From NCBI GenBank assembly GCA_025830695.1, contig GCA_025830695.1_4111.1: a stretch of 64,000 nucleotides of DNA; one strand, 5' to 3'. This DNA is from a phage. A program made the position numbers and the translations under genes. The notes beneath the pieces are model-generated. The model ran no database searches and had not been told where the DNA came from. It saw only the letters and a program-made list of their open reading frames with translations. Position 1 is the stretch's first letter, and the number at the start of each line of letters is the position of its first letter. Positions 7,262 through 51,041 of the stretch are shown here, in pieces.

Positions 7262-8324
<1,063 letters not shown>

Positions 8325-8335
8325 AATATAGACTT

Positions 8336-10501
<2,166 letters not shown>

Positions 10502-10502
<1 letters not shown>

Positions 10503-11293
10503 TGCCAAGTAAGAGTAAAAGTCAGGCTAAATTCTTCGCAGCCGCCGCACACAATCCAGAATTTGCAAAGAAAGCTGGAATTTCACAAAGTGCTGCTAAA
10601 GAATGGAATGCCGCTGATGAAAAGGAAGGAAATCTTAAAAAAAGTTCTAAACTTCCTAATAAAGTAAAAGAAGCAAGTATGCGTAGTTTAGTCGATATTG
10701 TACAAGATGCAGAATTAGCTGATACAGACGACAGAACTTGTGATATAATGGATTCATGTGAAGACGACAAAGATAAGTTGGATGAAATGCCACAACGTTT
10801 CGATAGTTTTCAAGGTCAAGACCGAGACGAGTTTGTCGATAAAACTGCCGAAATGACAGGTAAGCACAACATGGTTAAGTTCGCAGAACATAAAGACTAT
10901 GATGTATATATGAACAAAAACGGTACTGGATTTATCGCTTACGATAAGTCTGGTAAACAGCTTGCTATAGTTAGTGGGCATTTATCCAATGATGCAGTAC
11001 TTGGTGTTCAAAACGTTTTTGAAATTGCCGCAACTGCTTCTAAAACTGGAACTAAAGGTATAATTTATAATATCTTTATGGATATGATATCACATGGTAT
11101 TAAAGTTCTGAGTGATAGTCTGCATACTGATGATGCGATTAAATTCTGGACCCGTTTAATTGGTTCCCATCAAGTTTATATTGTTGGTGGCGGTGAAGTA
11201 CTTGCAAAGGCGAGTCCAGATAAGGTTCATAAGTACTGGAGTGATGATGAATCAAGTCCAAGTGCCGAACTTCAACTTATGTTAGTAAAATAA
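10502..11293 (+). CDS. Hypothetical protein with DUF3008-like N-terminus
   Basis: MPSKSKSQAKFFAAAAHNPEFAKKAGISQSAAKEWN resembles the DUF3008 N-terminal signature as I recall it. TAATG overlap with the previous gene. Confidence 0.55.
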
Positions 11294-11296
11294 TAA

Positions 11297-11332
11297 TATA
11301 TCGGGACAAATCGTTCCGATATTTTTTTTTTT
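11297..11332 (+). terminator. Rho-independent terminator
   Basis: atatcgg...ccgatat stem followed by an 11-nt T-run. Confidence 0.75.
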
Positions 11333-11360
11333 GAGACAAACAAAACATTGGTGATACAAT
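11331..11360 (+). promoter_or_regulatory. sigma70-like promoter with extended -10
   Basis: TTGAGA (11331-11336), 18 nt, TGaTACAAT (11352-11360). Confidence 0.55.
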
Positions 11361-11394
11361 GTTTTATGACAAAGAGACATGATAAGGAATTCAA

Positions 11395-13359
11395 ATGGCT
11401 AAGAAAGAAAGTGCTGTTCTACAGGAACATGATGTTCAACGACTAAATGATTATCAACATGCTCGTTTGCGTACCGAGATGTATCTTGGTTCTCGTTCAG
11501 TGCATGAAAGTCAAGTACTGATTTTTGGCGAATCAGGTTATGAGGTTAAGAACGTAGAATGGGTTCCTGCAATTCTTACTGCTACACGTGAAATTATTGA
11601 TAACAGCTTAGATGAATTTAAAAAAGCTGGAACCAAAGAACCTGTTTTGAAAGTTGATTTCAATGAAGAAGAACTATCATTTGAAATTAGTGACAATGGA
11701 CGTGGTATTCCAATTGATTATGTTCCAGAGTATCAGAAAAACTTGTGTACTATGGTAATGACTGAAACAAAAACAGGCCGTAACTTTGACGATTCAAAAC
11801 GTGATGAAACGATTGGTCAGAATGGTTTAGGTGGTTCTGTTGCAATGATTGTCAGTTCTAAGGCAGAGTTAGAAATTCATCGCCAAGGTCGTCCGTATAA
11901 AACACAAAGTAGTAATGATGGTTATGATGGGTTTTATAAGTTCAATCAGAAGTTTGAGGAAGGAACTATTATGTTCCCTGAGCTTCATGTACACGAACCT
12001 ACTATTAGAAAGGTACAAACCGATAAAACTGGAACAACAATTCGTTTTACTTTGAGTAAAGAAGTTTTTCCAAACAGAAAACTACCAACCGAATTACTTT
12101 ATAGTATTCTTAAAGAAATGGCAGCAGCTAACCCAACTTATAAAATCTTTCTGAACGGGAAACGTATTGCTATTAAAGGAAACACTGAAAAAGCACTCTT
12201 CAATGCATCTAAATTAATGCAGTTGAATGTTAAAGATGATTCATTCAATTTTAACAGTACTTTTTATATTGTTCCTAATGCAGTAGCTGGCATGAACACG
12301 AATTTCCATATGCATGGGTTGGTTAACAATGCTCCTGCATTTGATGGTGGTACACATCTTGATACATTCAAGAAATTCTTCTCACTCGGTGTAGGAACTG
12401 CACTAGAGAAAGAATCTAAGAAACGTAGGATGAAACCTAATCGTTCTGATATTGAAGAAGGTTTGTTGATTTATAATGTCACAACTATGAAAGCACCTTC
12501 ATTCAACTCACAGATTAAATCTAAACTAACTAATGAAAACGTAATCCGTCCAATTCAACAAGCTATGAATACCGAATGGTTTGATGAATTAGTTAAGAAG
12601 AACAAAGAATGGGTTGATGAAATCTTCGAACGTTGTGCTGCCCGTACAAATAAGAAAGATGCAGAAGAAGATCGTCGCCTAGCAAAGAAACTTCTAAAAG
12701 GTAAAGTTGCAAAACTATTGGATAGTACTGGAACAGACCGTTCACAGTGTATTCTATTGATTGCAGAAGGTGACTCTGCAATTTCCAACATGGCTAGTGC
12801 TCGTATACCAAGTATTCATGGTATTCTACCATTGCGTGGGAAAATTATGAACGTCAGTGGTACTGAGAAAACCAAAGAATTAATGGATTCAATGGCTTTA
12901 CATGATATAATGGCTAGTATCAACTTAGTTCCAGGTGTTAAAGCAGAACGTTCTGAACTAAACTATGGCAAGCTTTACATCTGTGCTGATGAAGATGAAG
13001 ATGGGAAGAACATTGGTGCTCTAGTGTGTAACTTCTTATTTAAATTCTGGCCTGAATTGTTTCAAGACCCAGAAAATCCATTTGTGTATGTATTCAAAAC
13101 ACCATTTATCATTCTTGAGAAAGGTAAAGAATCAAAATACTACTATGGTCATAATGTGCATGAATATAACCCAGATGATTGGAAAGGCTGGAAAGCAACG
13201 CGTGCAAAAGGTTTAGGAACTTTAGAAAAAGCAAACTTCCGTGATGCATTCACTAATAGTGTTGCAGTAGCGATCACCGATGATGGCCGTCTTGGTGAAA
13301 CTCTTGATTTGATTTTCAACAAGAAACGTGCAGATGATCGTAAGAACTGGATGGAATAA
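11395..13359 (+). CDS. DNA topoisomerase II large subunit (GyrB-like ATPase + Toprim; T4 gp39-type)
   Basis: GHKL boxes EIIDNSLDE and DNGRGIP. Toprim LLIAEGDSA, PLRGKIMNV, ADEDEDG. Confidence 0.9.
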   Translation: MAKKESAVLQEHDVQRLNDYQHARLRTEMYLGSRSVHESQVLIFGESGYEVKNVEWVPAILTATREIIDNSLDEFKKAGTKEPVLKVDFNEEELSFEISDNGRGIPIDYVPEYQKNLCTMVMTETKTGRNFDDSKRDETIGQNGLGGSVAMIVSSKAELEIHRQGRPYKTQSSNDGYDGFYKFNQKFEEGTIMFPELHVHEPTIRKVQTDKTGTTIRFTLSKEVFPNRKLPTELLYSILKEMAAANPTYKIFLNGKRIAIKGNTEKALFNASKLMQLNVKDDSFNFNSTFYIVPNAVAGMNTNFHMHGLVNNAPAFDGGTHLDTFKKFFSLGVGTALEKESKKRRMKPNRSDIEEGLLIYNVTTMKAPSFNSQIKSKLTNENVIRPIQQAMNTEWFDELVKKNKEWVDEIFERCAARTNKKDAEEDRRLAKKLLKGKVAKLLDSTGTDRSQCILLIAEGDSAISNMASARIPSIHGILPLRGKIMNVSGTEKTKELMDSMALHDIMASINLVPGVKAERSELNYGKLYICADEDEDGKNIGALVCNFLFKFWPELFQDPENPFVYVFKTPFIILEKGKESKYYYGHNVHEYNPDDWKGWKATRAKGLGTLEKANFRDAFTNSVAVAITDDGRLGETLDLIFNKKRADDRKNWME

Positions 13360-13370
13360 TATAGACTAAT

Positions 13371-13393
13371 GGGGAACATGGTGTTCCCCTTTT
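13371..13393 (+). terminator. Rho-independent terminator
   Basis: ggggaaca-tgg-tgttcccc followed by tttt. Confidence 0.8.
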
Positions 13394-13409
13394 ACCAAGA
13401 GACAATGGA

Positions 13410-14822
13410 ATGGCTAAAAGTAAAAAAACAGAAAATCATAATATCGATAACCAAACACTAACTCTACTAGATTATAACAGTTCTGATTATGTGAATACAA
13501 CATCACTAGAATATTCGATGTATACACTAGACCGTGCTATTCCTGGAATTGATGGTCTAAAGAGTTCACAACGTAAAGCAATCTTCACATTATCTAAAAT
13601 TAGTGGGGAAATTAAAACAGTATCATGTGCTGGAAAAATGATTAGTGATGGTATCTATCTTCATGGGGACACGTCAGCATCGGGAACACTTCAAAATCTA
13701 GCATCTCCAGTAGCTAACAACTATCCTCTTATTGGAAAACGTGGTGGTTTTGGTACACAAGTAAACAGTACACCAGCATCTGCTCGTTACACTTATGTTA
13801 AAAAGAATAAGAGTACTGAGATGCTTGTTTTGCGTGATGCTGATATTATACCAATGAAAGAGAACTATGACGGGACAACATATGAACCTGTTCATTTCTT
13901 GCCTATTATTCCATTATCATTGTTTGGTAATGATAGTATGTCAGTTGGTTATAAGAGTACAATTCTACCACATAAAATTGAAGATATTATTGATAATTGC
14001 ATTCGTGCTATTGATAAAAAACCACTAAAAGAAATGACCCCATATTATGTTTCATGTGGTGCAAGTGATGTTGTGACTAAGCTTGATGAAAATAAGTATG
14101 AATTCTATGGTAAAGCTGAGGTTATTGATGCAAGCACTGTTAAAGTAACAGGCTTACCACCTAATTACAGTATTGAGAAATTCATCGAAAAACTAATCAA
14201 AATGAGTGATGATGGTGAGATTCGTGATTATGACAATGATAGTACTGATGTAATTGATATTACCATTAAACTTCCACGTGGAACGTCAGCTAAATGGACA
14301 GAGATGGATGTTATTGAGTATTTTGGCATTAACAAAAAAATGACTCAACATTTAACTGTTCTAGGTGAAAATGGCAAAGTGAAAGTTTACGATACTACGA
14401 TGGATTTGATTAAAGACTTCGTTGATTTCCGTTTCAAATATTACATCAAGCGTTATGAAAAGAAACTTGATGATTGTGCTGCTGAAGTTCGTTATAAAAT
14501 TCTAATTAAAGAATGTTTCGATAATGATATGATTGCTAAGGTAAAAGGATTTGCAAACCGTGCTGAAATGGTTGAATTCGTTAAATCGTTAAATACCGAA
14601 ATTGAAGCGACGGAAGAGAATATTCAAAGCATTGTAAACTTCCCTTCATATCGCTGGACGCAAGATAATTATCAATCAGTACTACAAGATATTCAAGATA
14701 ATCTTGATTTGATGGATAAGTACAATGAACTGTTATCTAATCATGACTTAATTTGGGACATTTATAAATCTGAACTAAAAGAACTAAGAAAGATTGACTT
14801 TACTCCTAAATCAGACAATTGA
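13410..14822 (+). CDS. DNA topoisomerase II medium subunit (GyrA-like cleavage-religation; T4 gp52-type)
   Basis: DGLKSSQRK and SARYTY (active-site Tyr context). Directly follows the large subunit. Confidence 0.85.
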   Translation: MAKSKKTENHNIDNQTLTLLDYNSSDYVNTTSLEYSMYTLDRAIPGIDGLKSSQRKAIFTLSKISGEIKTVSCAGKMISDGIYLHGDTSASGTLQNLASPVANNYPLIGKRGGFGTQVNSTPASARYTYVKKNKSTEMLVLRDADIIPMKENYDGTTYEPVHFLPIIPLSLFGNDSMSVGYKSTILPHKIEDIIDNCIRAIDKKPLKEMTPYYVSCGASDVVTKLDENKYEFYGKAEVIDASTVKVTGLPPNYSIEKFIEKLIKMSDDGEIRDYDNDSTDVIDITIKLPRGTSAKWTEMDVIEYFGINKKMTQHLTVLGENGKVKVYDTTMDLIKDFVDFRFKYYIKRYEKKLDDCAAEVRYKILIKECFDNDMIAKVKGFANRAEMVEFVKSLNTEIEATEENIQSIVNFPSYRWTQDNYQSVLQDIQDNLDLMDKYNELLSNHDLIWDIYKSELKELRKIDFTPKSDN

Positions 14823-14832
14823 TATATTTAAT

Positions 14833-14860
14833 GGAAGACCTTATGGGTCTTCCTTGTCCT
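14833..14860 (+). terminator. Probable terminator hairpin
   Basis: ggaagacc-ttatg-ggtcttcc, but the T-run is interrupted (ttgtccttt). Confidence 0.5.
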
Positions 14861-14909
14861 TTATATAAATAATCTATAGATAATGGCAGCTTGGCTATGG
14901 AGAATTATA

Positions 14910-17303
14910 ATGACAACTTTTACCCCACGATGGGATATAAAAGCCGATGCTCGATATATACAAGAAGGACAAGACATTCTTGTGCGTTTGAGTATCAATA
15001 AAGAAAGCACAACGGATGATAGCTATGTATTAAATGAAGATGAATACTTAGAAATGATTCTTAACATACAATGCTTGGATAGTTCAGGTGCTGTATTTGA
15101 TCCAGAACCACATTATACTTTTTATGTTGGTAATGACGAAAATACTTTTGTTCCTATTTCAGATGGTACAACTGGTAATAAATTAGTAAATGGTAAGCAT
15201 AAGTGTAAAATCAGCAAAAATGAATTTAACTTATCTGCAAGTACTAATAGTGAAGATGTTTATTTTATAAAAATTCATTGTAAAAATGATGGAACCTATA
15301 ATAATACAGAAATTATAAATTTTTATTTACAAGCAGTAAATGTTATGTATTTTGGAAATATTTCACCAAGTGGTGTTCTAGGATTAACTGATACATCAAT
15401 AACATATGATAGTCAAGAAGTTTGGGTTACACCCGGAGTTGAGATTGGTGATGACAAAAAGCTTTATTGTATTGGTGATGTTGAGTATGGCTCCAACAGT
15501 ACATTGTTCGTTCAAGGATTTGGAAGAAGACGACCTTTCATTTTGGGTACTGACATGACTACTGATATTACACCTCGTGTCTTTTTTCCAGCATATCGTT
15601 TGATTGACATGGATATTTCTGAAGTTCCAGATAAACATATTACGAATGATTTCGCAGTATTCAAGCCAGCACAATCAACATGGCCTATTTCTGGTATAAA
15701 CAAAGAAGTAAAAGTTAATATTCAAAATAGAAATGGTAATTTAATTGACACTGGAATGGTGTTCAACCCAAATGGGCAATTATTGCAAACATTTTTATAT
15801 GACTCAGATGCTTGTGATGCATATTTTAAAGTTGAGATTGTTGATATATTAAGTACATACACCGAAGAAAGTGAAAGGTTTGCTATCAATCAACGATATA
15901 AAGCATATCAAATGTGGGTTTGTCCTGAAGACATAGATACTATATATTCTATTTCAGAAAAACCACTACCCAATCATTTATATCAATTAAAAGATAATGT
16001 TGTGTATCCATACGTAATTAGTGGTGAATACGATAATGGAACAATTAAGCCCGTTTATGATAGTAGTGATTGGATTGATTTAGGATATTATGACTCTACT
16101 CTTGGTGATAATATCATTGGTATGCAAAAAATGTTCAGGGTTTTGATAAACGCAGAAGAAGGTAATAATATAAACTTTATTACTGATAGTGATTTAGGAA
16201 CCATACATGTTGGTGAATATTTTGGAGACAGTATATATCCTAAAATTGAAACTGATAGCTCTAATCAAGTTTCGTATGTTTTAGATGGTGGTGATGACAT
16301 TAGAAAGTATGGGATAGATTTGACACCAGATGGATATCTTGTAGGAACTGCATATGCCAAAAGTATTGATTTTAGTGAAAATGATGATATTAAATTATCG
16401 TTTTATGTTAAAGCATTTAGTACTGAAGGTGGTGAAGCAAGAAAAATATTTAACCTTAAGATTGTAAGAGGATTCGGACAGAATTATTTGAGTGCACATG
16501 TATTACCTTCGGTTGCATTTGAGAGAGAATGGTTTAAATGTATAAGTACTTCATCATTCACTAATCAACTATTTTTCCGACAATCTGACAATAGATATGG
16601 TCTTCAGAAAATACCGAAGATGTTATTGAAAGAAAACTTCCTAAGTCAAACGTATCCATATACTAACCTTTCTGATATCAAGAAAGTATTGAGAAATAGT
16701 ATAATTAACCCAAATGGAACTACTATTCCAAATGGAAAATTTAAAATGGTAATGGGTAATTATAAAATAATATCAGCACTTGACAATCAAGGTAACTTAC
16801 AATATGATCTATTATATAGAGAGGTTTTACCTGAAGGTTCTTTAGTATCTGTATCCAAAAATCCACGTCAATATACTCAAATCGACAACGGTCAGCTTGG
16901 TGAATTATTTGGTTTACGACAAAATATTTTTCAGGCTATTGGTGAAGACACAACCAACTTAGTAAAAGACCCAACCGATTTACAAAATCGTGGTCTATAC
17001 GTTGATGCGATACCAAGTATCAGTGATGAAATGCTTGATACGGTTCCAAGATTTATGAATCACCCATACATTGAAGATGGTATACAGAAAAAATTCATGC
17101 CTATCATTCCAGTTGCATATTGTCAACCAGGCAAAGGTGAAGCATTTTTCAACACTTTACTTCAGAACAATGAACATGGTACAATGGTAGGTGTAGAGTT
17201 CGAAATCACATCGGTTGAATTCGGATACTTTTCGCATGAATCAGTGAATTATGTTTCAGATACATTTTTGATTACATTGCAAAACAATAACATAGGAGGT
17301 TAA
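14910..17303 (+). CDS. Large hypothetical protein (797 aa), function not recognised
   Basis: Track ORF 14883..17303. ATG 14910 follows GGAGAA. No motif I can name. Confidence 0.7.
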   Translation: MTTFTPRWDIKADARYIQEGQDILVRLSINKESTTDDSYVLNEDEYLEMILNIQCLDSSGAVFDPEPHYTFYVGNDENTFVPISDGTTGNKLVNGKHKCKISKNEFNLSASTNSEDVYFIKIHCKNDGTYNNTEIINFYLQAVNVMYFGNISPSGVLGLTDTSITYDSQEVWVTPGVEIGDDKKLYCIGDVEYGSNSTLFVQGFGRRRPFILGTDMTTDITPRVFFPAYRLIDMDISEVPDKHITNDFAVFKPAQSTWPISGINKEVKVNIQNRNGNLIDTGMVFNPNGQLLQTFLYDSDACDAYFKVEIVDILSTYTEESERFAINQRYKAYQMWVCPEDIDTIYSISEKPLPNHLYQLKDNVVYPYVISGEYDNGTIKPVYDSSDWIDLGYYDSTLGDNIIGMQKMFRVLINAEEGNNINFITDSDLGTIHVGEYFGDSIYPKIETDSSNQVSYVLDGGDDIRKYGIDLTPDGYLVGTAYAKSIDFSENDDIKLSFYVKAFSTEGGEARKIFNLKIVRGFGQNYLSAHVLPSVAFEREWFKCISTSSFTNQLFFRQSDNRYGLQKIPKMLLKENFLSQTYPYTNLSDIKKVLRNSIINPNGTTIPNGKFKMVMGNYKIISALDNQGNLQYDLLYREVLPEGSLVSVSKNPRQYTQIDNGQLGELFGLRQNIFQAIGEDTTNLVKDPTDLQNRGLYVDAIPSISDEMLDTVPRFMNHPYIEDGIQKKFMPIIPVAYCQPGKGEAFFNTLLQNNEHGTMVGVEFEITSVEFGYFSHESVNYVSDTFLITLQNNNIGG

Positions 17304-17304
17304 T

Positions 17305-17616
17305 ATGTTTAATCCGTTTTTTGACCCGTCTGGAATGACGGAAAAAGAACTACAGTTAAAAATTAATGAACAGTCAATGCGTTTAACTTCTGCTCGTGCT
17401 GCTGGCCTAAGCGACATGATTATTGGTAATATGCAAACTGTCTTAAATCAATGTTATGCTGAACTAGAACTTCGCCAAGGACAAAAAGAAAAAACTGTTT
17501 ATGACGAAGAAGACCCATGTATCTTCGATATGGATTCATATCTAACTGACAACGAAGAGGCCCAGAAGAAGAAAAATGAAAGTACAAGGAAACAGATTTA
17601 TAAGTCCCAATGGTGA
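17305..17616 (+). CDS. Hypothetical protein (103 aa)
   Basis: Track ORF. AGGAGG RBS lies immediately upstream. Confidence 0.65.
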   Translation: MFNPFFDPSGMTEKELQLKINEQSMRLTSARAAGLSDMIIGNMQTVLNQCYAELELRQGQKEKTVYDEEDPCIFDMDSYLTDNEEAQKKKNESTRKQIYKSQW

Positions 17617-18094
17617 TGTGAAATGTAATCTTAACGCAGTTGTTTATGCAATCAATTGCGGTGCAGATATCCAGTACTTACAATTGCAGGAAATTGATGA
17701 ACCTGAAAGGTTGAAATTCAATGATAACTGTAAAAAATTTGGCTTAGAACAACGTATGCTGGATTATACAATTGAGCATGATAAAAATCATGAACTGTGG
17801 CGATATGATCCAGTATACGACAATATAAATCTGCGTGACTTTTTCTTACAAAAATGCACATCCGATGAAGCACGAAAACGTGTTGAGTATGAACTTGATT
17901 TATATGAATATTATAATATGACAAAGCTACTAAGATGTATGATATGGCTTGTTGATTATATGGAAGAAAATGAGATCTTTTGGGGTCTAGGTCGTGGAAG
18001 CTCTGTTGCATCATACTGTTTGTTTTTGATTGGACTACATATGGTAGATTCATTGAAGTACGAACTTGATGTTAACGAATTTTTGAAATGGTAG
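17576..18094 (+). CDS. DnaE (Pol III alpha)-like fragment ending just before the catalytic Asp motif
   Basis: RKRVEYELDLYEYYNMTKLLRCMIWLVDYMEENEIFWGLGRGSSVASYCLFLIGLHMVDSLKYELDVNEFL aligns by eye to E. coli DnaE [66 protein letters not shown]. Start is uncertain. Confidence 0.5.
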   Translation: MKVQGNRFISPNGDVKCNLNAVVYAINCGADIQYLQLQEIDEPERLKFNDNCKKFGLEQRMLDYTIEHDKNHELWRYDPVYDNINLRDFFLQKCTSDEARKRVEYELDLYEYYNMTKLLRCMIWLVDYMEENEIFWGLGRGSSVASYCLFLIGLHMVDSLKYELDVNEFLKW

Positions 18095-18112
18095 AAAAAC
18101 ATGTGATATAAT
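18083..18112 (+). promoter_or_regulatory. sigma70-like promoter, TGTGATATAAT class
   Basis: TTGAAA (18083-18088), 18 nt, TGaTATAAT (18104-18112). Confidence 0.65.
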
Positions 18113-18157
18113 GTTTATTGTAGGCTTATATCACACATACAATAAAAGGATTTTGAT

Positions 18158-18502
18158 ATGTCTAAACATACAACTTATCGTGGTACAACAATTGACATGG
18201 ATATGCTCAAGTACCAAAATCAACATCAGGTAGCATTAGGTAATGCTAATTTAAACGCACGTGGTGATAAAATCGGTTCAGGTGGAACAATTATTAAAAC
18301 TCGTGAAGAGTTGATTCAAGAAAAAGAACGAGAAATGCAAATTCCTGATTATATCCCTGAACATCAACTTCATAGTACTGAACATGGTACGGATGAAGTA
18401 TGGGATGATGAGAGTTTTGAAGTTAAGCCCGAAGAACAAGAAGCTGAGGTTTCTGAAGAGAAGAAAGCACCACGTCGAGCTAGAACCAAAGATCAGGAGT
18501 AA
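18158..18502 (+). CDS. Hypothetical protein (114 aa), acidic C-terminus
   Basis: Track ORF with AAAGGA upstream. Confidence 0.65.
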   Translation: MSKHTTYRGTTIDMDMLKYQNQHQVALGNANLNARGDKIGSGGTIIKTREELIQEKEREMQIPDYIPEHQLHSTEHGTDEVWDDESFEVKPEEQEAEVSEEKKAPRRARTKDQE

Positions 18503-18510
18503 TATATTAA

Positions 18511-18837
18511 ATGACTAATAAAGTAATGACTGCATGTAAAGGTAAAGTACTGGTAACTGAACTGGAACATGGTGAACGCAAAACAGCAGGTGGTATCGTT
18601 TTAACAAACGATGACGGTAAAATTAGAGGTATTCGTTCTCGCTGGGCAAAAGTTTATTCTGTAGGCGAAGACATTACTGATATTAAAGAAGGTCAATGGA
18701 TTTTAATTGATCATGGTCGATGGTCAAGAACTATTGAAGTTGATGGTATTGAATTAAACTTGGTTGATTATCCAGCCGCAGTTAGTTTAGTTTCAGATGA
18801 AGATCCACGAACTAAAATGCTAACCTTTGGTCGTTAA
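18511..18837 (+). CDS. GroES-like co-chaperonin (T4 gp31 functional analog)
   Basis: GKVLVTELEHGERKTAGGIVL...VGEDI..IKEGQWIL compares to GroES RVIVKR.EVETKSAGGIVL...VG. Confidence 0.75.
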   Translation: MTNKVMTACKGKVLVTELEHGERKTAGGIVLTNDDGKIRGIRSRWAKVYSVGEDITDIKEGQWILIDHGRWSRTIEVDGIELNLVDYPAAVSLVSDEDPRTKMLTFGR

Positions 18838-18851
18838 TAAAATATAATTAA

Positions 18852-18880
18852 AGCTCGGATGAATATCTGGGCTTTTTATT
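18852..18880 (+). terminator. Rho-independent terminator
   Basis: agctcgga...tctgggct stem (with G-U pairs) followed by ttttt. Confidence 0.65.
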
Positions 18881-18893
18881 TGGACAGATTTTG

Positions 18894-19163
18894 ATGATAA
18901 CTGATGATGGAAAATTTAGTTTCAAGGATGTAACATTAGTATCTAAAAACGGAAGATTCATGTTTGAAGATAGAAAAAATACCAAATATGTATATGAAGT
19001 TTCACATGATATGTTTAAAGTTTTATTAGTTGCATCAGCCCAAGCTGAAAGTACTGGGATTAAAAATAAGGCAAATTCTTTTAATTTTTTATTAAATCAA
19101 TTGGAAATGACAGAAGAACTTTTCACGGCTTTATTATATAATTCAGCCGATTGGATTCTATAA
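18894..19163 (+). CDS. Hypothetical protein (89 aa)
   Basis: Track ORF 18891..19163 (TTG or ATG start). Confidence 0.55.
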   Translation: MITDDGKFSFKDVTLVSKNGRFMFEDRKNTKYVYEVSHDMFKVLLVASAQAESTGIKNKANSFNFLLNQLEMTEELFTALLYNSADWIL

Positions 19164-19186
19164 CACGTACACATAAGGAAATACAA

Positions 19187-20140
19187 ATGACCACACTATG
19201 GACTGAAAAATATCGCCCACAATCAATGGAAGATTATGTATCAAAAAACGATGCACTACGCCAGAAAATGGAAGAATGGATTAAGACTGGTGACATTCCA
19301 CATATTGGGTTTTTTGGCCCAGCAGGAACTGGTAAAACATCTGCGATCAAAGTACTAATTAATGGACTAGTTCAAAATGGACACCTTGATCCAAGTGATG
19401 TGACCACGCTTAACATGTCCGATGAAGGCATTGATGCTGTTCGTGACAAAATCGATGCCGCAGCAAAGCTATCATGTTTTGGTAGATATCGTATTTTTGT
19501 TCTTGAAGAAATGGAGCAGATGAACCACAAAGCACAAGGTAGTTTGAAACGTGTAATGGAAGACTATCATGAAAATGCTCGCTTTATTTTAACAAGTAAC
19601 GAACCACATAAAATTCAAAAACCTATCATTTCTCGTGTTCAAGTTATTACAATCGAAAAGCATGATATGGAACAATTCATGACTCGAATTTATAATATTC
19701 TTCTAGCAGAAGGTGTTGATTTGAGTAGTGATGATAGTGTTGAACAAGTTCAAAAGTACATCAATGCTTCCTATCCTGATTTCCGTAAAACACTAAACGT
19801 ATTGCAAAGTTCAGTTGTTGATGGTAAGCTAGTAAAACTTGAAGATAGTATTGAAAATTCAGCAGGGTATCGTACTGCAATTGTTGAAGCATTAAAGGCA
19901 GGCAACATTCGCCAAATGCGTGAACAAATTGTACAAAATATCCCTGATGATGAGATGGATGCATTTTTCTCTTACTTGTACAGAAATGCTGAAATGTTCA
20001 GTACTGATGAAATCACACTGATGAAGATTAAAGTTAAAATTCGTGATGCAGTTGTTAAGCAAGCAACAGTATCAGACCGTGAAATGAATCTTAGTGCTTT
20101 ACTGTGTGAGATTGACCTAATTTGTTCGGGGAACATGTAA
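19187..20140 (+). CDS. Clamp-loader ATPase (RFC small subunit / T4 gp44-like)
   Basis: WTEKYRP, Walker A FFGPAGTGKTS, Walker B VLEEME, SRC-like ISRVQVI. ATG 19187 follows AAGGAA. Confidence 0.85.
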   Translation: MTTLWTEKYRPQSMEDYVSKNDALRQKMEEWIKTGDIPHIGFFGPAGTGKTSAIKVLINGLVQNGHLDPSDVTTLNMSDEGIDAVRDKIDAAAKLSCFGRYRIFVLEEMEQMNHKAQGSLKRVMEDYHENARFILTSNEPHKIQKPIISRVQVITIEKHDMEQFMTRIYNILLAEGVDLSSDDSVEQVQKYINASYPDFRKTLNVLQSSVVDGKLVKLEDSIENSAGYRTAIVEALKAGNIRQMREQIVQNIPDDEMDAFFSYLYRNAEMFSTDEITLMKIKVKIRDAVVKQATVSDREMNLSALLCEIDLICSGNM

Positions 20141-20766
20141 TGAAACCACGTTGTATAGTTTTTGATTGTGATGAAGTTCTATTGGACCATATGGGTATGC
20201 TTTCTGAGTTTGTAAAACAAACTTATAATATCACACCATCAACACCATACCCATTAGAATATGATTTATCAGACTGGTTGGGTGTTCCTCAACCTGAAGT
20301 TAAAAAGATTCTTGAACAGTTCAACCAACAATCATATTTGTTTGGGTTGTTAAAGCCAGTCGAACCAAATACAGTTGATATTGTACAAGAGCTACGTGAT
20401 CGTTTTCATAAAGAAAAATTCGTAGTACTCACAAAATGTGGTAAAAAAGGCTATGGTGAAGTTTTACGAAATGTAAATCTAATGCGTGAATTTGGTGAAA
20501 ACTGCTTTGATGAGATTATTATCATAGAAATGAATGAATCAAAGAAAGAAGCATTAGAGGATTTACAAACACGATATGATGTAAAACTAATGATTGATGA
20601 TTATATCAATAATATTGAAACTGCTATGGGTCTTGGTATTCCATCAGTTATGATGGGATGTTCTCATAATACTATGTATAAGAATCATAGTGGTTTTGAA
20701 TATATCGAAAACTGGACAGAACTTAGACTGAAAATTTATTCAGTACTAGGTAAATATTACAAATAA
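20140..20766 (+). CDS. HAD-superfamily hydrolase (5'-nucleotidase-like)
   Basis: N-terminal CIVFDCDEVLLDH (DxDx[TV] motif). TAATG overlap with the clamp loader. Confidence 0.6.
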   Translation: MKPRCIVFDCDEVLLDHMGMLSEFVKQTYNITPSTPYPLEYDLSDWLGVPQPEVKKILEQFNQQSYLFGLLKPVEPNTVDIVQELRDRFHKEKFVVLTKCGKKGYGEVLRNVNLMREFGENCFDEIIIIEMNESKKEALEDLQTRYDVKLMIDDYINNIETAMGLGIPSVMMGCSHNTMYKNHSGFEYIENWTELRLKIYSVLGKYYK

Positions 20767-45527: not shown

Positions 45528-45863
<336 letters not shown>

Positions 45864-45864
45864 A

Positions 45865-46047
45865 ATGACACACGAAGAATGGATGTCCAAACAGCATAAA
45901 GAACATGACTGCTTTGGGAATGGCATTCGTCAGGTACATTATGATATATTAAGAGATGAAAATCTTTTCAGGTCATATGTTTTGGATACCAGAAAACCCT
46001 GGTTTATATGCGAACTGGCATTTAGAAAGTCAAATAATCAAAACTAA
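45865..46047 (+). CDS. MTHEEWM mini-protein family, copy 3 (60 aa)
   Basis: MTHEEWMSKQHKEHDCFGNGIRQVHYDILRDENLFRSYVLDTRKPWFICELAFRK (internal ATG of track ORF 45847). Confidence 0.6.
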   Translation: MTHEEWMSKQHKEHDCFGNGIRQVHYDILRDENLFRSYVLDTRKPWFICELAFRKSNNQN

Positions 46048-46063
46048 ACAAGGAATACAAAAA

Positions 46064-46282
46064 ATGGAAACAACTTTATTTGAAGTTATTCAATCATTAA
46101 AACCTGAAGATGAGGTTCAAGTACTACTACATGGTTATCGTGTAAAAGGTACTGTGGTTTTAGTCAATGATACAACATTGGTTATTACAGAAACAAACCC
46201 ATATGATAGTAATCAACTTGCCAATATCCATATCGATATCACTGGAATTATTGGTGTCGGTGTATCTAAAACACTTGCATAA
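46064..46282 (+). CDS. Hypothetical protein (72 aa)
   Basis: Track ORF 45956..46282. ATG 46064 follows AAGGAA. Confidence 0.55.
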   Translation: METTLFEVIQSLKPEDEVQVLLHGYRVKGTVVLVNDTTLVITETNPYDSNQLANIHIDITGIIGVGVSKTLA

Positions 46283-46335
46283 ATCATTAATTCATTATAT
46301 AATGATTATCACTGGTTCTAGATGAGGATAATATT

Positions 46336-46608
46336 ATGCATTTTGAAAAATTCAACGTAAATCGTAACACACGCATTGAAGTTCTTTATGAAACTCAAGA
46401 CACCATTAGTATTCGTACAAGTAGTGGGGATGTATATCATGACTGTACGATTGGCTGGGAACAGGGAAGGACGCGTAGTGCAGTATTTGATAATTATCGC
46501 TTTTATCAAGGAGACACTACGATTTGGCCTGAATACGTAGAAGATATTGCGTTTGAAGATGAACATAAAGATGAATTTATCAAATTTAATCCTCAAACTG
46601 AATCATAA
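46336..46608 (+). CDS. Hypothetical protein (90 aa)
   Basis: Track ORF with GAGGA upstream. Confidence 0.6.
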   Translation: MHFEKFNVNRNTRIEVLYETQDTISIRTSSGDVYHDCTIGWEQGRTRSAVFDNYRFYQGDTTIWPEYVEDIAFEDEHKDEFIKFNPQTES

Positions 46609-46612
46609 ATAA

Positions 46613-46742
<130 letters not shown>

Positions 46743-46745
46743 AAT

Positions 46746-46846
<101 letters not shown>

Positions 46847-46848
46847 CA

Positions 46849-47009
<161 letters not shown>

Positions 47010-47013
<4 letters not shown>

Positions 47014-47170
47014 CACATGAAGAATGGATGAATGACATTAATTTTAGATATTCGGGTATCGGTAAATGGCTAAAGTATCATTGGGAATTCATTTCAGAGC
47101 CACATCTGTATGATAAACTTATCAACGATCCAGCATATGAAATGTACTTAATTGAACTACTGGTACGATT

Positions 47171-47174
<4 letters not shown>
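47010..47174 (+). CDS. MTHEEWM mini-protein family, copy 5 (54 aa)
   Basis: MTHEEWMNDINFRYSGIGKWLKYHWEFISEPHLYDKLINDPAYEMYLIELLVRL. The first ~55 nt are almost identical to copy 4. ATGA overlap. Confidence 0.6.
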
Positions 47175-47336
<162 letters not shown>

Positions 47337-47344
47337 AAAAAAAG

Positions 47345-47754
<410 letters not shown>

Positions 47755-47758
<4 letters not shown>

Positions 47759-47784
47759 CTAAATAATTCAGTACTGAGGATATT
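47755..47784 (+). promoter_or_regulatory. Second copy of the promoter cassette (weak -10)
   Basis: TTGACT (47755-47760) + AAATAATTCAGTACTGA. The best -10 is GATATT (47779-47784). Confidence 0.4.
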
Positions 47785-47815
47785 AATATGTTTAAAGATG
47801 AACGTCCAGATTTGT

Positions 47816-47853
<38 letters not shown>

Positions 47854-47859
47854 GAATTC

Positions 47860-48201
47860 CACAATCAGACGTATATGGTGTAAGTTACGTCGATGCAATC
47901 CAGAACAAGATCTCTGGTACTCTAGGAAGTGGTGAATGTTAACCTAGACGGGTTTGATAATTGGACGATAGGCAATTATTACTTGACTAGCAGGTTTAAA
48001 CTAGAGGTGACTATCCTTCACCAAACTGGAAAACCGGATGGACTTTTATTTAAAAGGGTAAGGCGTGGAAATATGTTTACAGAAGTTGCTTTTAGTAGCC
48101 TGTACGCCCCACGTCAAGGTAGCCGAAAGGCAAGTTAAGACGGGTGGTTATAAAGCTGAATTAACAGCGGCGTTTAAAAGCGTCACCATCCATTTTTTTT
48201 T
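47860..48201 (+). ncRNA. Candidate structured RNA or long structured leader (~340 nt), class unknown
   Basis: Lies downstream of a strong promoter and is locally more G+C-rich. No ORF with an RBS. Helices ggcgtgg/ccacgtc (48061-48067 with 48107-48113) and gcc-GAAA-ggc. Terminal stem gggtggt/accatcc (48142-48148 with 48185-48191) followed by T9. Confidence 0.35.
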
Positions 48202-48217
48202 AATTAAAGTTGGTGAT

Positions 48218-49027
<810 letters not shown>

Positions 49028-49051
49028 ACGAAATTACAATAGGAAATTAAA

Positions 49052-49237
49052 ATGCAACTTTTAATTCTTTCAATATTGTATATTATTATAATGGTTCCGA
49101 TATCAATACGTTTAATTACACTTGAACGATTTTTATCGAAACATGGAAATAGATCTATGATCTTAGTACCAATCGGGCTTATATTGTTTGGTATTTTTGC
49201 ATTTATAATGGGAATTAACGCTACATTCATTTCATAG
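49052..49237 (+). CDS. Small membrane protein (61 aa)
   Basis: Track ORF with two hydrophobic segments. AGGAAA upstream. Confidence 0.55.
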   Translation: MQLLILSILYIIIMVPISIRLITLERFLSKHGNRSMILVPIGLILFGIFAFIMGINATFIS

Positions 49238-49246
49238 GAAACAAAT

Positions 49247-49504
<258 letters not shown>

Positions 49505-49512
49505 GAATTTAA

Positions 49513-49914
49513 ATGAAAAAGAATGACTTGATCAAAATGCTTCAAGAAATTGACGGCAATCCAGAGATTGTTATTTGGAATGGATACGTCGATGATTATA
49601 TGAACATCGAAAAAGGCTTGACTAAAATCACTCTAGTCAAAGAAACCGAACAGTTTCTTCAGGGTGCATTAGAGCACGAATGGTGTGAACGTAACAATAC
49701 ATTCGACATTCCAGAAGACCAACGAACCAAGATTGCAGAACGTGCTAAAGAACTGCATAAGAAACGTGAATACGATTTCCAGAACCCATATGTCACTGAA
49801 GACGAATTCAATCGCTGGTACGGTAAAAAGAAATTGATAAAGTATGTCCTTTCACCTAAACTACGTGGTAAGACTTCACTTGGTGTATTCAACGCCGCAG
49901 ACTTAAACTACTAA
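49513..49914 (+). CDS. Hypothetical protein (133 aa)
   Basis: Track ORF with AGGAA upstream. Confidence 0.65.
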   Translation: MKKNDLIKMLQEIDGNPEIVIWNGYVDDYMNIEKGLTKITLVKETEQFLQGALEHEWCERNNTFDIPEDQRTKIAERAKELHKKREYDFQNPYVTEDEFNRWYGKKKLIKYVLSPKLRGKTSLGVFNAADLNY

Positions 49915-49926
49915 GAGAGTATTTAA

Positions 49927-50694
<768 letters not shown>

Positions 50695-50696
50695 TA

Positions 50697-50753
<57 letters not shown>

Positions 50754-50838
50754 AGTAAGAGTAAAAATGAAAGTAAGTAAAAAAACTACCAAGCAGCTTG
50801 AAGAACTTTGTAGTGCTGCACCTATGCCGACTCTTGGC

Positions 50839-50939
<101 letters not shown>

Positions 50940-50951
50940 TATCTTACTTCT

Positions 50952-51041
<90 letters not shown>

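Follow-up and report, generated by a model that had tools for sequence, protein, structure and literature searches.

The stretch of DNA analysed here, referred to below as the window, comprises 64,000 nucleotides of a phage genome (NCBI GenBank assembly GCA_025830695.1, contig GCA_025830695.1_4111.1). An open reading frame (ORF) on its plus strand, at positions 17576-18094, encodes a protein of 172 amino acids that is homologous to a short part of the alpha subunit of DNA polymerase III (Pol III alpha), known as DnaE in E. coli. This protein, termed the N-unit, is likely the nucleotide-binding subunit of a minimal, Pol III alpha-like nucleotidyltransferase of the C family, which would be encoded by two separate genes in Rak2-like and related large myoviruses. 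The second subunit, termed the C-unit, would be the product of gp488, a gene located outside the window. A split minimal Pol III alpha is already known as a computational prediction, and the ORF is annotated in GenBank. New in the present work are the naming of the two genes and of the exact break between them in Asteriusvirus, structure-prediction support for both halves, figures on selection and co-occurrence, the size of the family and the uniform length of its members, and its presence in a phage that is not a jumbo phage.

Homology and conservation of the N-unit

The ORF starts with an ATG at 17576, its stop codon ends at 18094, and it holds 172 codons plus the stop, as given in the preliminary description of this stretch. 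It corresponds to PBECO4 gp449, 121Q gp56 and CBB_328 and belongs to PHROG 11127. Its labels in GenBank and RefSeq vary, and include 'hypothetical protein', 'DNA polymerase' and 'DNA polymerase III alpha subunit'. Between positions 17000 and 18600, the window shares 100% identity with Escherichia phage BAU.Micro_ELP-22 and 99.9% with PBECO4, and as a whole it corresponds approximately to positions 194009-258008 of the PBECO4 record (NC_027364), reversed. The phage is an Asteriusvirus, that is, a Rak2-like jumbo myovirus of E. coli of the PBECO4/121Q type.

The homology to Pol III alpha that the preliminary description had proposed by eye was borne out by profile searches. Pfam PF07733 (DNA_pol3_alpha) matches the ORF with E=1.9e-9 and 37.9 bits, above the gathering score of 23.9, and the match spans residues 92-171 and only positions 16-95 of the 260 in the profile. 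In the NCBIfam models of DnaE, residues 58-170 are collinear with positions ~280-390 (E=1.6e-8 to 1e-4), far under the full-length cut-offs. BLASTP against E. coli DnaE aligned residues 98-170 with 320-392 (E=1e-4). A profile built from 35 members of the family and compared with all PDB sequences recovered only Pol III alpha chains, residues 84-171 being aligned with 286-393 of the E. coli protein. The E. coli string quoted in the preliminary description, RLDYELGVI, was inexact and actually reads RLETELQVI, while its observation that the ORF stops where DnaE runs on into the catalytic motif holds: the end corresponds to E. coli residue 393, 7 residues ahead of the catalytic D401. The N-unit represents only about 10% of the length of DnaE, and the three catalytic aspartates of the enzyme (D401, D403 and D555 in E. 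coli) are not on its polypeptide.

Homology to the first palm segment of Pol III alpha extends over residues 58-172 (17747-18091, plus strand; E. coli DnaE ~280-393). This region contains the 'GS' loop, W136-G-L-G-R-G-S-S143, encoded at 17981-18004 on the plus strand and aligned to G359-S364 (GPGRGS) of E. coli DnaE. In structures of DnaE and PolC, the GS loop is the triphosphate-binding motif of the palm, which is of the Pol-beta-like nucleotidyltransferase type. The invariant positions of the family are W75, R102, E106, L119, G137-x-G-R-G-S142, S146, L149, H155 and F169, and within the loop no variation was found at G137, G139, R140, G141 or S142 across 35-36 diverse members. In the AlphaFold model of the monomer, the strand expected to pair with the DxD strand of a polymerase palm is a coil without a pairing partner, and confidence is low at the C-terminus. 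These features of the predicted structure would fit the need for a partner, without proving one.

Residues 1-57 (17576-17746, plus strand) form a family-specific N-terminal extension with no detected counterpart in DnaE, for which a beta-hairpin and two helices are predicted in the AlphaFold model. The extension is conserved inside the family, and a ratio of nonsynonymous to synonymous substitution rates (dN/dS) of 0-0.09 indicates purifying selection. Two other origins for the N-terminal part were considered and rejected. A weak BLASTP alignment of residues 43-68 (PERLKFNDNC...) with DnaE 394-417 (PERVSMPDFDVDF..., E=0.072) raised the possibility of a circular permutation, which was ruled out, as only an F/Y-N pair is conserved there, no DxD is present and the true DxD strand lies on gp488. 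Likewise, a vestige of the first strand-helix-strand of the PHP domain has no profile support, the DnaE alignments beginning at residue 58 or later.

The gene is well conserved. Compared with 121Q, the N-unit shows 20 nucleotide differences, all of them synonymous, and dN/dS against fEgEco12, RaK2 and GAP32 is 0.01-0.08, with dS near saturation. It is complete, with 77-100% identity, in all Rak2-like genera, and more than 70 independently sequenced genomes show the same boundaries for the ORF. Homologues of 170-183 amino acids with the same end (...EFLK/EFFR/EFLE) are found in PA5oct-like phages, XacN1, Atu_ph07 and RsoM2USA. A HMMER scan of 1.84 billion representative proteins returned at least 475 clusters (50% identity) at E<=1e-30. 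The best 150 of these are all 156-196 amino acids long and aligned through the final position of the profile, and none of these 150 representatives is a fused form of both units or a longer form.

Matches to other phage protein families suggest that the break has parallels elsewhere. Both phrog_13169 (profile positions 339-409 of 463) and phrog_7513 (363-438 of 461) match the ORF near their C-termini, and phrog_11165 (782 amino acids) matches it near its N-terminus (37-111). Judged from these alignments, other phage lineages may also break or start DnaE-type polymerases near the same point of the palm.

The partner gene and the pairing of the two halves

For other pieces of a polymerase, the annotation of PBECO4 was scanned in full, and three further genes labelled as polymerases were found. 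Two of them were rejected as DnaE pieces: gp512 (1001 amino acids), labelled 'DNA polymerase', is a family-B polymerase similar to T4 gp43 (DNA_pol_B_exo1 and DNA_pol_B), and gp495 (272 amino acids), labelled 'DNA polymerase exonuclease subunit', is a DnaQ/RNase_T exonuclease. The third is the candidate C-unit, gp488, which encodes 212 amino acids at NC_027364 270767-271405 and belongs to PHROG 11778. The N-unit lies at 239915-240433 of the same record, on the same strand and about 30.3 kb away. The annotation offers no further candidate. Both units accompany gp512, the family-B polymerase that is the main replicase of the phage.

The gp488 protein begins MQDSTDSKHYRKARTDIDIDF and carries TDIDIDF near its start, followed by the motifs ...PHNSGV..., ...GYQKVDIL..., ...MIRPGK... 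and ...KKPHAYAYS.... Among 35 diverse homologues of 190-220 amino acids, the invariant residues are D16, D18, D20, H48, G51, K80, D82, R149, P150, K152, H190 and Y194. The motifs are collinear with DnaE 401-421, 544-642 and 752-767. D16, D18 and D20 correspond to E. coli D401, D403 and D405; with hhalign, residues 72-153 were aligned to 544-642, including the K553-x-D555 strand and the FRPGP motif of the fingers; and the last of the motifs corresponds to KSHSAAY at 752-767. The catalytic aspartates on gp488 are D16, D18 and D82. PF17657 was matched below threshold by 12 of the 35 homologues. At the junction, residue 171 of the N-unit corresponds to E. coli 393 and D16 of the C-unit to D401, leaving neither a gap nor an overlap.

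The AlphaFold model of gp488 has structural matches to C-family polymerases only. In this model, the DxD strand is followed by one helix and a beta-hairpin, which lead directly into the HxxGV strand without a thumb, and only a few helices, which retain RPxK and KxHAxAY, are left of the fingers. The palm fold is found in the models, and the best structural matches of both halves are exclusively DnaE and PolC. No Pfam match to the PHP, thumb, beta-binding or OB domains was obtained in either protein, a tau-binding domain is lacking as well, and full fingers are absent; together the two proteins amount to 384 amino acids.

A search of the whole genome for the remaining DnaE segments had been proposed in the preliminary description. 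With E. coli DnaE as a query, tblastn against the window and the rest of PBECO4 yielded nothing above noise (E>=4) and failed to recover even the N-unit ORF; the method was thus too insensitive, and family hidden Markov models (HMMs) and the annotation were used instead. A six-frame scan of the whole genome (ORFs of at least 40 codons) with the HMMs of both units found each of them exactly once and no further ORF resembling DnaE. Of the segments sought, the catalytic palm and reduced fingers lie on gp488. Because the catalytic aspartates sit on gp488, about 30 kb away, the ORF alone is not a polymerase, in agreement with the earlier assessment.

The two halves have closely similar distributions in the phage collection, where they were compared by genus totals and not record by record. 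Matches to the N-unit and C-unit, respectively, number 34/34 for phages of Escherichia, 11/11 for Pseudomonas, 10/11 for Klebsiella, 8/8 for Salmonella, 8/8 for Erwinia, 4/4 for Xanthomonas, 4/4 for Yersinia and 2/2 for Cronobacter. The additional N-unit matches, in phages of Streptomyces and Bacillus, come from full-length DnaE genes. The two genes lie 14 kb apart in CM1, ~30 kb in Asteriusvirus, 33 kb in RaK2, 43 kb in Paride and as much as 182 kb in Atu_ph07. Alishewanella phage Slickus01 (141,644 bp) carries both halves 11 kb apart, at positions 8533-9045 and 19884-20495 of locus L017, with an RFC-type clamp loader between them. Because both halves occur in this 141-kb genome, below the 200-kb threshold, the split mini Pol III is not restricted to jumbo phages.

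Genomic neighbourhoods of the two units

The genes around the N-unit form a block with the order upstream small gene, N-unit, 114-amino-acid gene, Cpn10-like gene, one further small gene and gp44/RFC-type clamp loader, and subunits of topoisomerase II are encoded upstream of it. All genes of the block that are located below are on the plus strand. The upstream gene (17305-17616; 103 amino acids, PHROG 15348) overlaps with its 3' end the first 41 nucleotides of the N-unit in another frame, and the annotations of 121Q, RaK2 and GAP32 show the same overlap. An upstream gene of other size overlaps the start of the N-unit by 4-38 nucleotides in Paride, Atu_ph07 and RsoM2USA. The overlap could reflect translational coupling. 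At the other end, the preliminary description had placed a promoter for the next gene immediately after the ORF. A TG-extended, sigma-70-like motif (TTGAAA-18-TATAAT) is present before that gene at 18083-18112 on the plus strand, with 11 of 12 positions in a consensus scan. It is a consensus match only, and it overlaps the final codons of the N-unit ORF rather than following them.

The genes for the 114-amino-acid protein (PHROG 14844) and for a Cpn10/GroES-like protein of 108 amino acids lie at 18158-18837 and were assigned by PHROG and Pfam matches. They are orthologous to genes 0088 and 0089 of Pseudomonas phage Paride (46% and 39% identity) and always follow the N-unit, from Asteriusvirus through PA5oct-like phages. 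The 114-amino-acid protein carries a conserved N-terminal motif (…LGNANLNARGDKIGSGG…). A second GroES-like gene, gp507, is found elsewhere in PBECO4.

The AAA+ subunit of the gp44/RFC-type clamp loader is encoded at 19151-20140 (Pfam DNA_pol3_delta2, AAA and Gp44_lid). The small genes just before it vary in number and size among relatives. When the loci of relatives were compared, as the preliminary description had also proposed, the same block order was found in Paride, XacN1 and Atu_ph07, in which the neighbour is annotated as a clamp loader. In RsoM2USA, the record of which is unannotated, the N-unit lies ~1.7 kb upstream of a gene of clamp-loader size. Directly after the clamp loader, at the place of gp62 in T4, positions 20122-20766 encode a 5'-nucleotidase of the NT5C/HAD type (Pfam NT5C, E=1e-8). 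Rak2-like phages were described as having no homologue of gp62 or gp45 (phage CBB paper, PMC5259590).

The neighbours of the C-unit encode a primase, a UvsW-type helicase, a DnaQ-like exonuclease, UvsX/UvsY and gp32. In view of these neighbouring genes, both halves lie in replication and recombination neighbourhoods. The DnaQ-like gene is PBECO4 gp495 (positions 18742-19560 of locus L011, outside the window), located 5 kb from the C-unit. Its 272-amino-acid product is a DnaQ/RNase_T 3'-5' exonuclease with a short match to QSregVF_b at its C-terminus, and it may provide proofreading to the mini Pol III, which has no PHP domain.

Two other features of these genomes were recorded. The window contains six transfer RNA genes at 45550-51031 on the plus strand (Gly-TCC, Ser-TGA, Ser-GCT, Met-CAT, Asn-GTT and Thr-TGT). 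Outside the window, positions 157841-170100 of PBECO4 (7841-20100 of locus L010) hold an array of ten tandem paralogues of ~300-405 amino acids, annotated as 'regulator of chromosome condensation' (RCC1-like), most of the genes around them being on the other strand.

Proposed assembly, competing explanations and known systems

In the proposed mechanism, the N-unit would contribute the first palm segment, comprising a beta-strand and the GRGSS loop that in DnaE and PolC holds the triphosphate of the incoming deoxynucleoside triphosphate (dNTP), and gp488 would contribute the DxD strand, the third aspartate and much reduced fingers. The two proteins may associate non-covalently, the strand and GRGSS loop of the N-unit packing against the DxD strand of the C-unit, and in this way rebuild one palm beta-sheet. 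The product would be a small, probably distributive nucleotidyltransferase. Given the gene context and the retained fingers motifs of the C family, its most likely role would be that of an auxiliary DNA polymerase acting beside the family-B replicase in repair, gap filling or the synthesis of one strand, possibly in partnership with the phage DnaQ-like exonuclease. Assembly, polymerase activity and biological role are all predictions. Among the three options of the preliminary description, which made no choice between them, that of one piece of a split gene is the one supported, with a single-copy gp488 that supplies the DxD, the third aspartate and the reduced fingers and that co-occurs with the N-unit across genera.

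Several points weigh against this reconstruction. Pfam gave no match to gp488 at E<=0.01, and the gp488 profile searched against PDB found DnaE as its sole match, weakly, at E=0.3. By sequence statistics the case for the C-unit is weak, and its assignment comes from motif collinearity and a predicted structure. The two genes lie 11-182 kb from each other and are never adjacent, an unusual situation for obligate partners. With no thumb and tiny fingers, stable binding of a primer-template is doubtful, and another kind of nucleotidyl transfer is possible. Finally, the identity of the pair with the family reported by Iyer, Anantharaman, Krishnan, Burroughs & Aravind in 2021 (Viruses 13:63, PMC7824862) was inferred from their description and not from accessions.

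The N-terminal extension of the N-unit (residues 1-57) and its deeply conserved linkage to the 114-amino-acid gene, the Cpn10-like gene and the clamp-loader block invite a further idea, to which only a small probability is given: the N-unit could be more than half of an active site, and might attach the mini-polymerase to the clamp or the clamp loader of the phage, or control the moment at which the catalytic C-unit becomes active. If this were true, these phages would possess a switchable second polymerase, with a reach beyond jumbo phages.

A function of the N-unit on its own, independent of the C-unit, for instance as a decoy for the host replisome or as a nucleotide-binding regulator of the clamp-loader module, is unlikely. 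The 57-residue family-specific domain under purifying selection would be in keeping with such a role, as would the synteny that in distant phages links the N-unit to the clamp loader, the Cpn10-like gene and the 114-amino-acid gene, the C-unit always lying elsewhere. However, the genus distribution of the N-unit matches that of the C-unit, and the monomer model leaves the DxD-pairing strand as an unpaired coil with a low-confidence C-terminus. Moreover, the best-conserved residues are those of the dNTP-binding loop, which would be sensible only beside a DxD strand. The DnaE segment homologous to the N-unit is not known as the site of epsilon, beta or tau binding. The earlier suggestion that the fragment had been retained for interaction with host replisome components thus found no support.

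It is also improbable that the two halves assemble into something other than a templated DNA polymerase, such as an enzyme for tailing of the terminal-transferase kind, for primer synthesis or extension on RNA, or for the synthesis of a nucleotide signal. Enzymes of the Pol-beta fold have many activities, and in the phage pair the thumb and most of the fingers are gone and the beta-clamp-binding, OB and PHP domains are absent. On the other hand, the RPxK and KxHAxAY motifs of the fingers are specific to the C family and invariant, both genes lie in the replication and recombination neighbourhoods described above (clamp loader and topoisomerase; primase, UvsW, DnaQ-like, UvsX/Y and gp32), and DnaE and PolC alone make up the closest structural matches. 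An auxiliary DNA polymerase therefore remains the preferred reading of the assembled pair.

That the N-unit is the decaying remnant of a once full-length dnaE, derived from phage or host, is very improbable. The idea, also among the options of the preliminary description, draws on the ~10% of DnaE that is present, on the missing catalytic aspartates and on the word used for phage CBB, whose 172-amino-acid Pol III alpha (CBB_328) was reported as 'truncated' alongside a DnaQ epsilon-like protein (Buttimer et al. 2017, PMC5259590). The usual signs of a pseudogene, namely relaxed selection, variable truncation and patchy retention, were not found: dN/dS is 0-0.08, and length and end are uniform. 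All 20 of the differences from 121Q are synonymous, and the same length and end are kept in Rak2-like and PA5oct-like phages, XacN1, Atu_ph07, RsoM2USA, Slickus01 and the best 150 of the at least 475 clusters. Furthermore, the GRGSS loop is invariant, no DnaE-like sequence flanks the ORF, and no overlapping gene in another frame is annotated across relatives that would explain the conservation. Because of the purifying selection and the fixed length across hundreds of lineages, as judged by sequence comparison, the N-unit is a functional gene and not a remnant. Least credible of all is an artefact or a covalent rejoining by frameshift, intron or homing endonuclease, or split intein, for although cyanobacteria have a split-intein DnaE and T4-like phages have polymerase genes that are split or interrupted, no frameshift joining the ORF to a full-length polymerase was found, its boundaries are identical in the more than 70 genomes with the partner 11-182 kb off, the N-unit ends 0-14 residues past EFLK with no space for an N-intein of ~100 amino acids, and several C-units start M(M)DIDIDF with no space for a C-intein or a nucleophile residue.

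The closest known system was described from 'group 2.2' jumbo phages (PMC7824862) as a split minimal Pol III alpha, which consists of an N-terminal NTP-binding unit and a separate, distant C-terminal unit binding Mg2+ and template that are 'likely to reconstitute' an enzyme; it accompanies a family-B polymerase and lacks other Pol III domains. Apart from the predicted reconstitution, every element of that description was reproduced for the genome studied here. Genes for 'Pol III alpha and epsilon' were likewise reported as conserved in Atu_ph07 and Rak2-like phages (Attai et al. 2018, PMC6102473). A search of the literature for experiments published later on the split enzyme turned up only the 2021 paper. 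If the active site is rebuilt as proposed, the pair would be by far the smallest C-family polymerase, with ~384 residues in two chains compared with more than 1,100. It would offer a natural experiment on the minimal core of a bacterial replicase and possibly a picture of an ancestral state, as argued by Iyer et al. (PMC7824862). In addition, a large and widespread group of big myoviruses would have a second, bacterial-type DNA polymerase beside their T4-like family-B enzyme.

With DnaE and PolC (PF07733; PDB 2HNH, 5FKU, 2HPI and 3F2B), the N-unit shares the palm segment and the GS loop, and its partner has the DxD, the third aspartate and the fingers motifs. DnaE and PolC, however, are single chains of 1,000-1,400 amino acids, whereas the phage pair has ~384 in two and lacks the PHP, thumb, beta-binding, OB and tau-binding domains that these enzymes possess. 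Unlike in DnaE and PolC, the catalytic residues and the dNTP-binding loop are on different polypeptides.

The split-intein DnaE of cyanobacteria (DnaE-n/DnaE-c) resembles the phage pair in that dnaE is divided between distant genes. The cyanobacterial enzyme is full-length, and its break lies a long way downstream and is repaired by trans-splicing of the protein, whereas the phage break is inside the catalytic palm of a minimal enzyme, with no intein sequences at the junction. The split genes of T4-like phages are likewise similar in that separate polypeptides form one enzyme, through non-covalent assembly that in the phage pair is predicted. Examples are the two-part gp43 of some Aeromonas phages and the gp39/gp60/gp52 topoisomerase, whose parts are usually adjacent or separated by mobile elements. 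In contrast to these, the two halves of the minimal Pol III alpha belong to other protein families, lie tens of kb apart and are stable across deep lineages.

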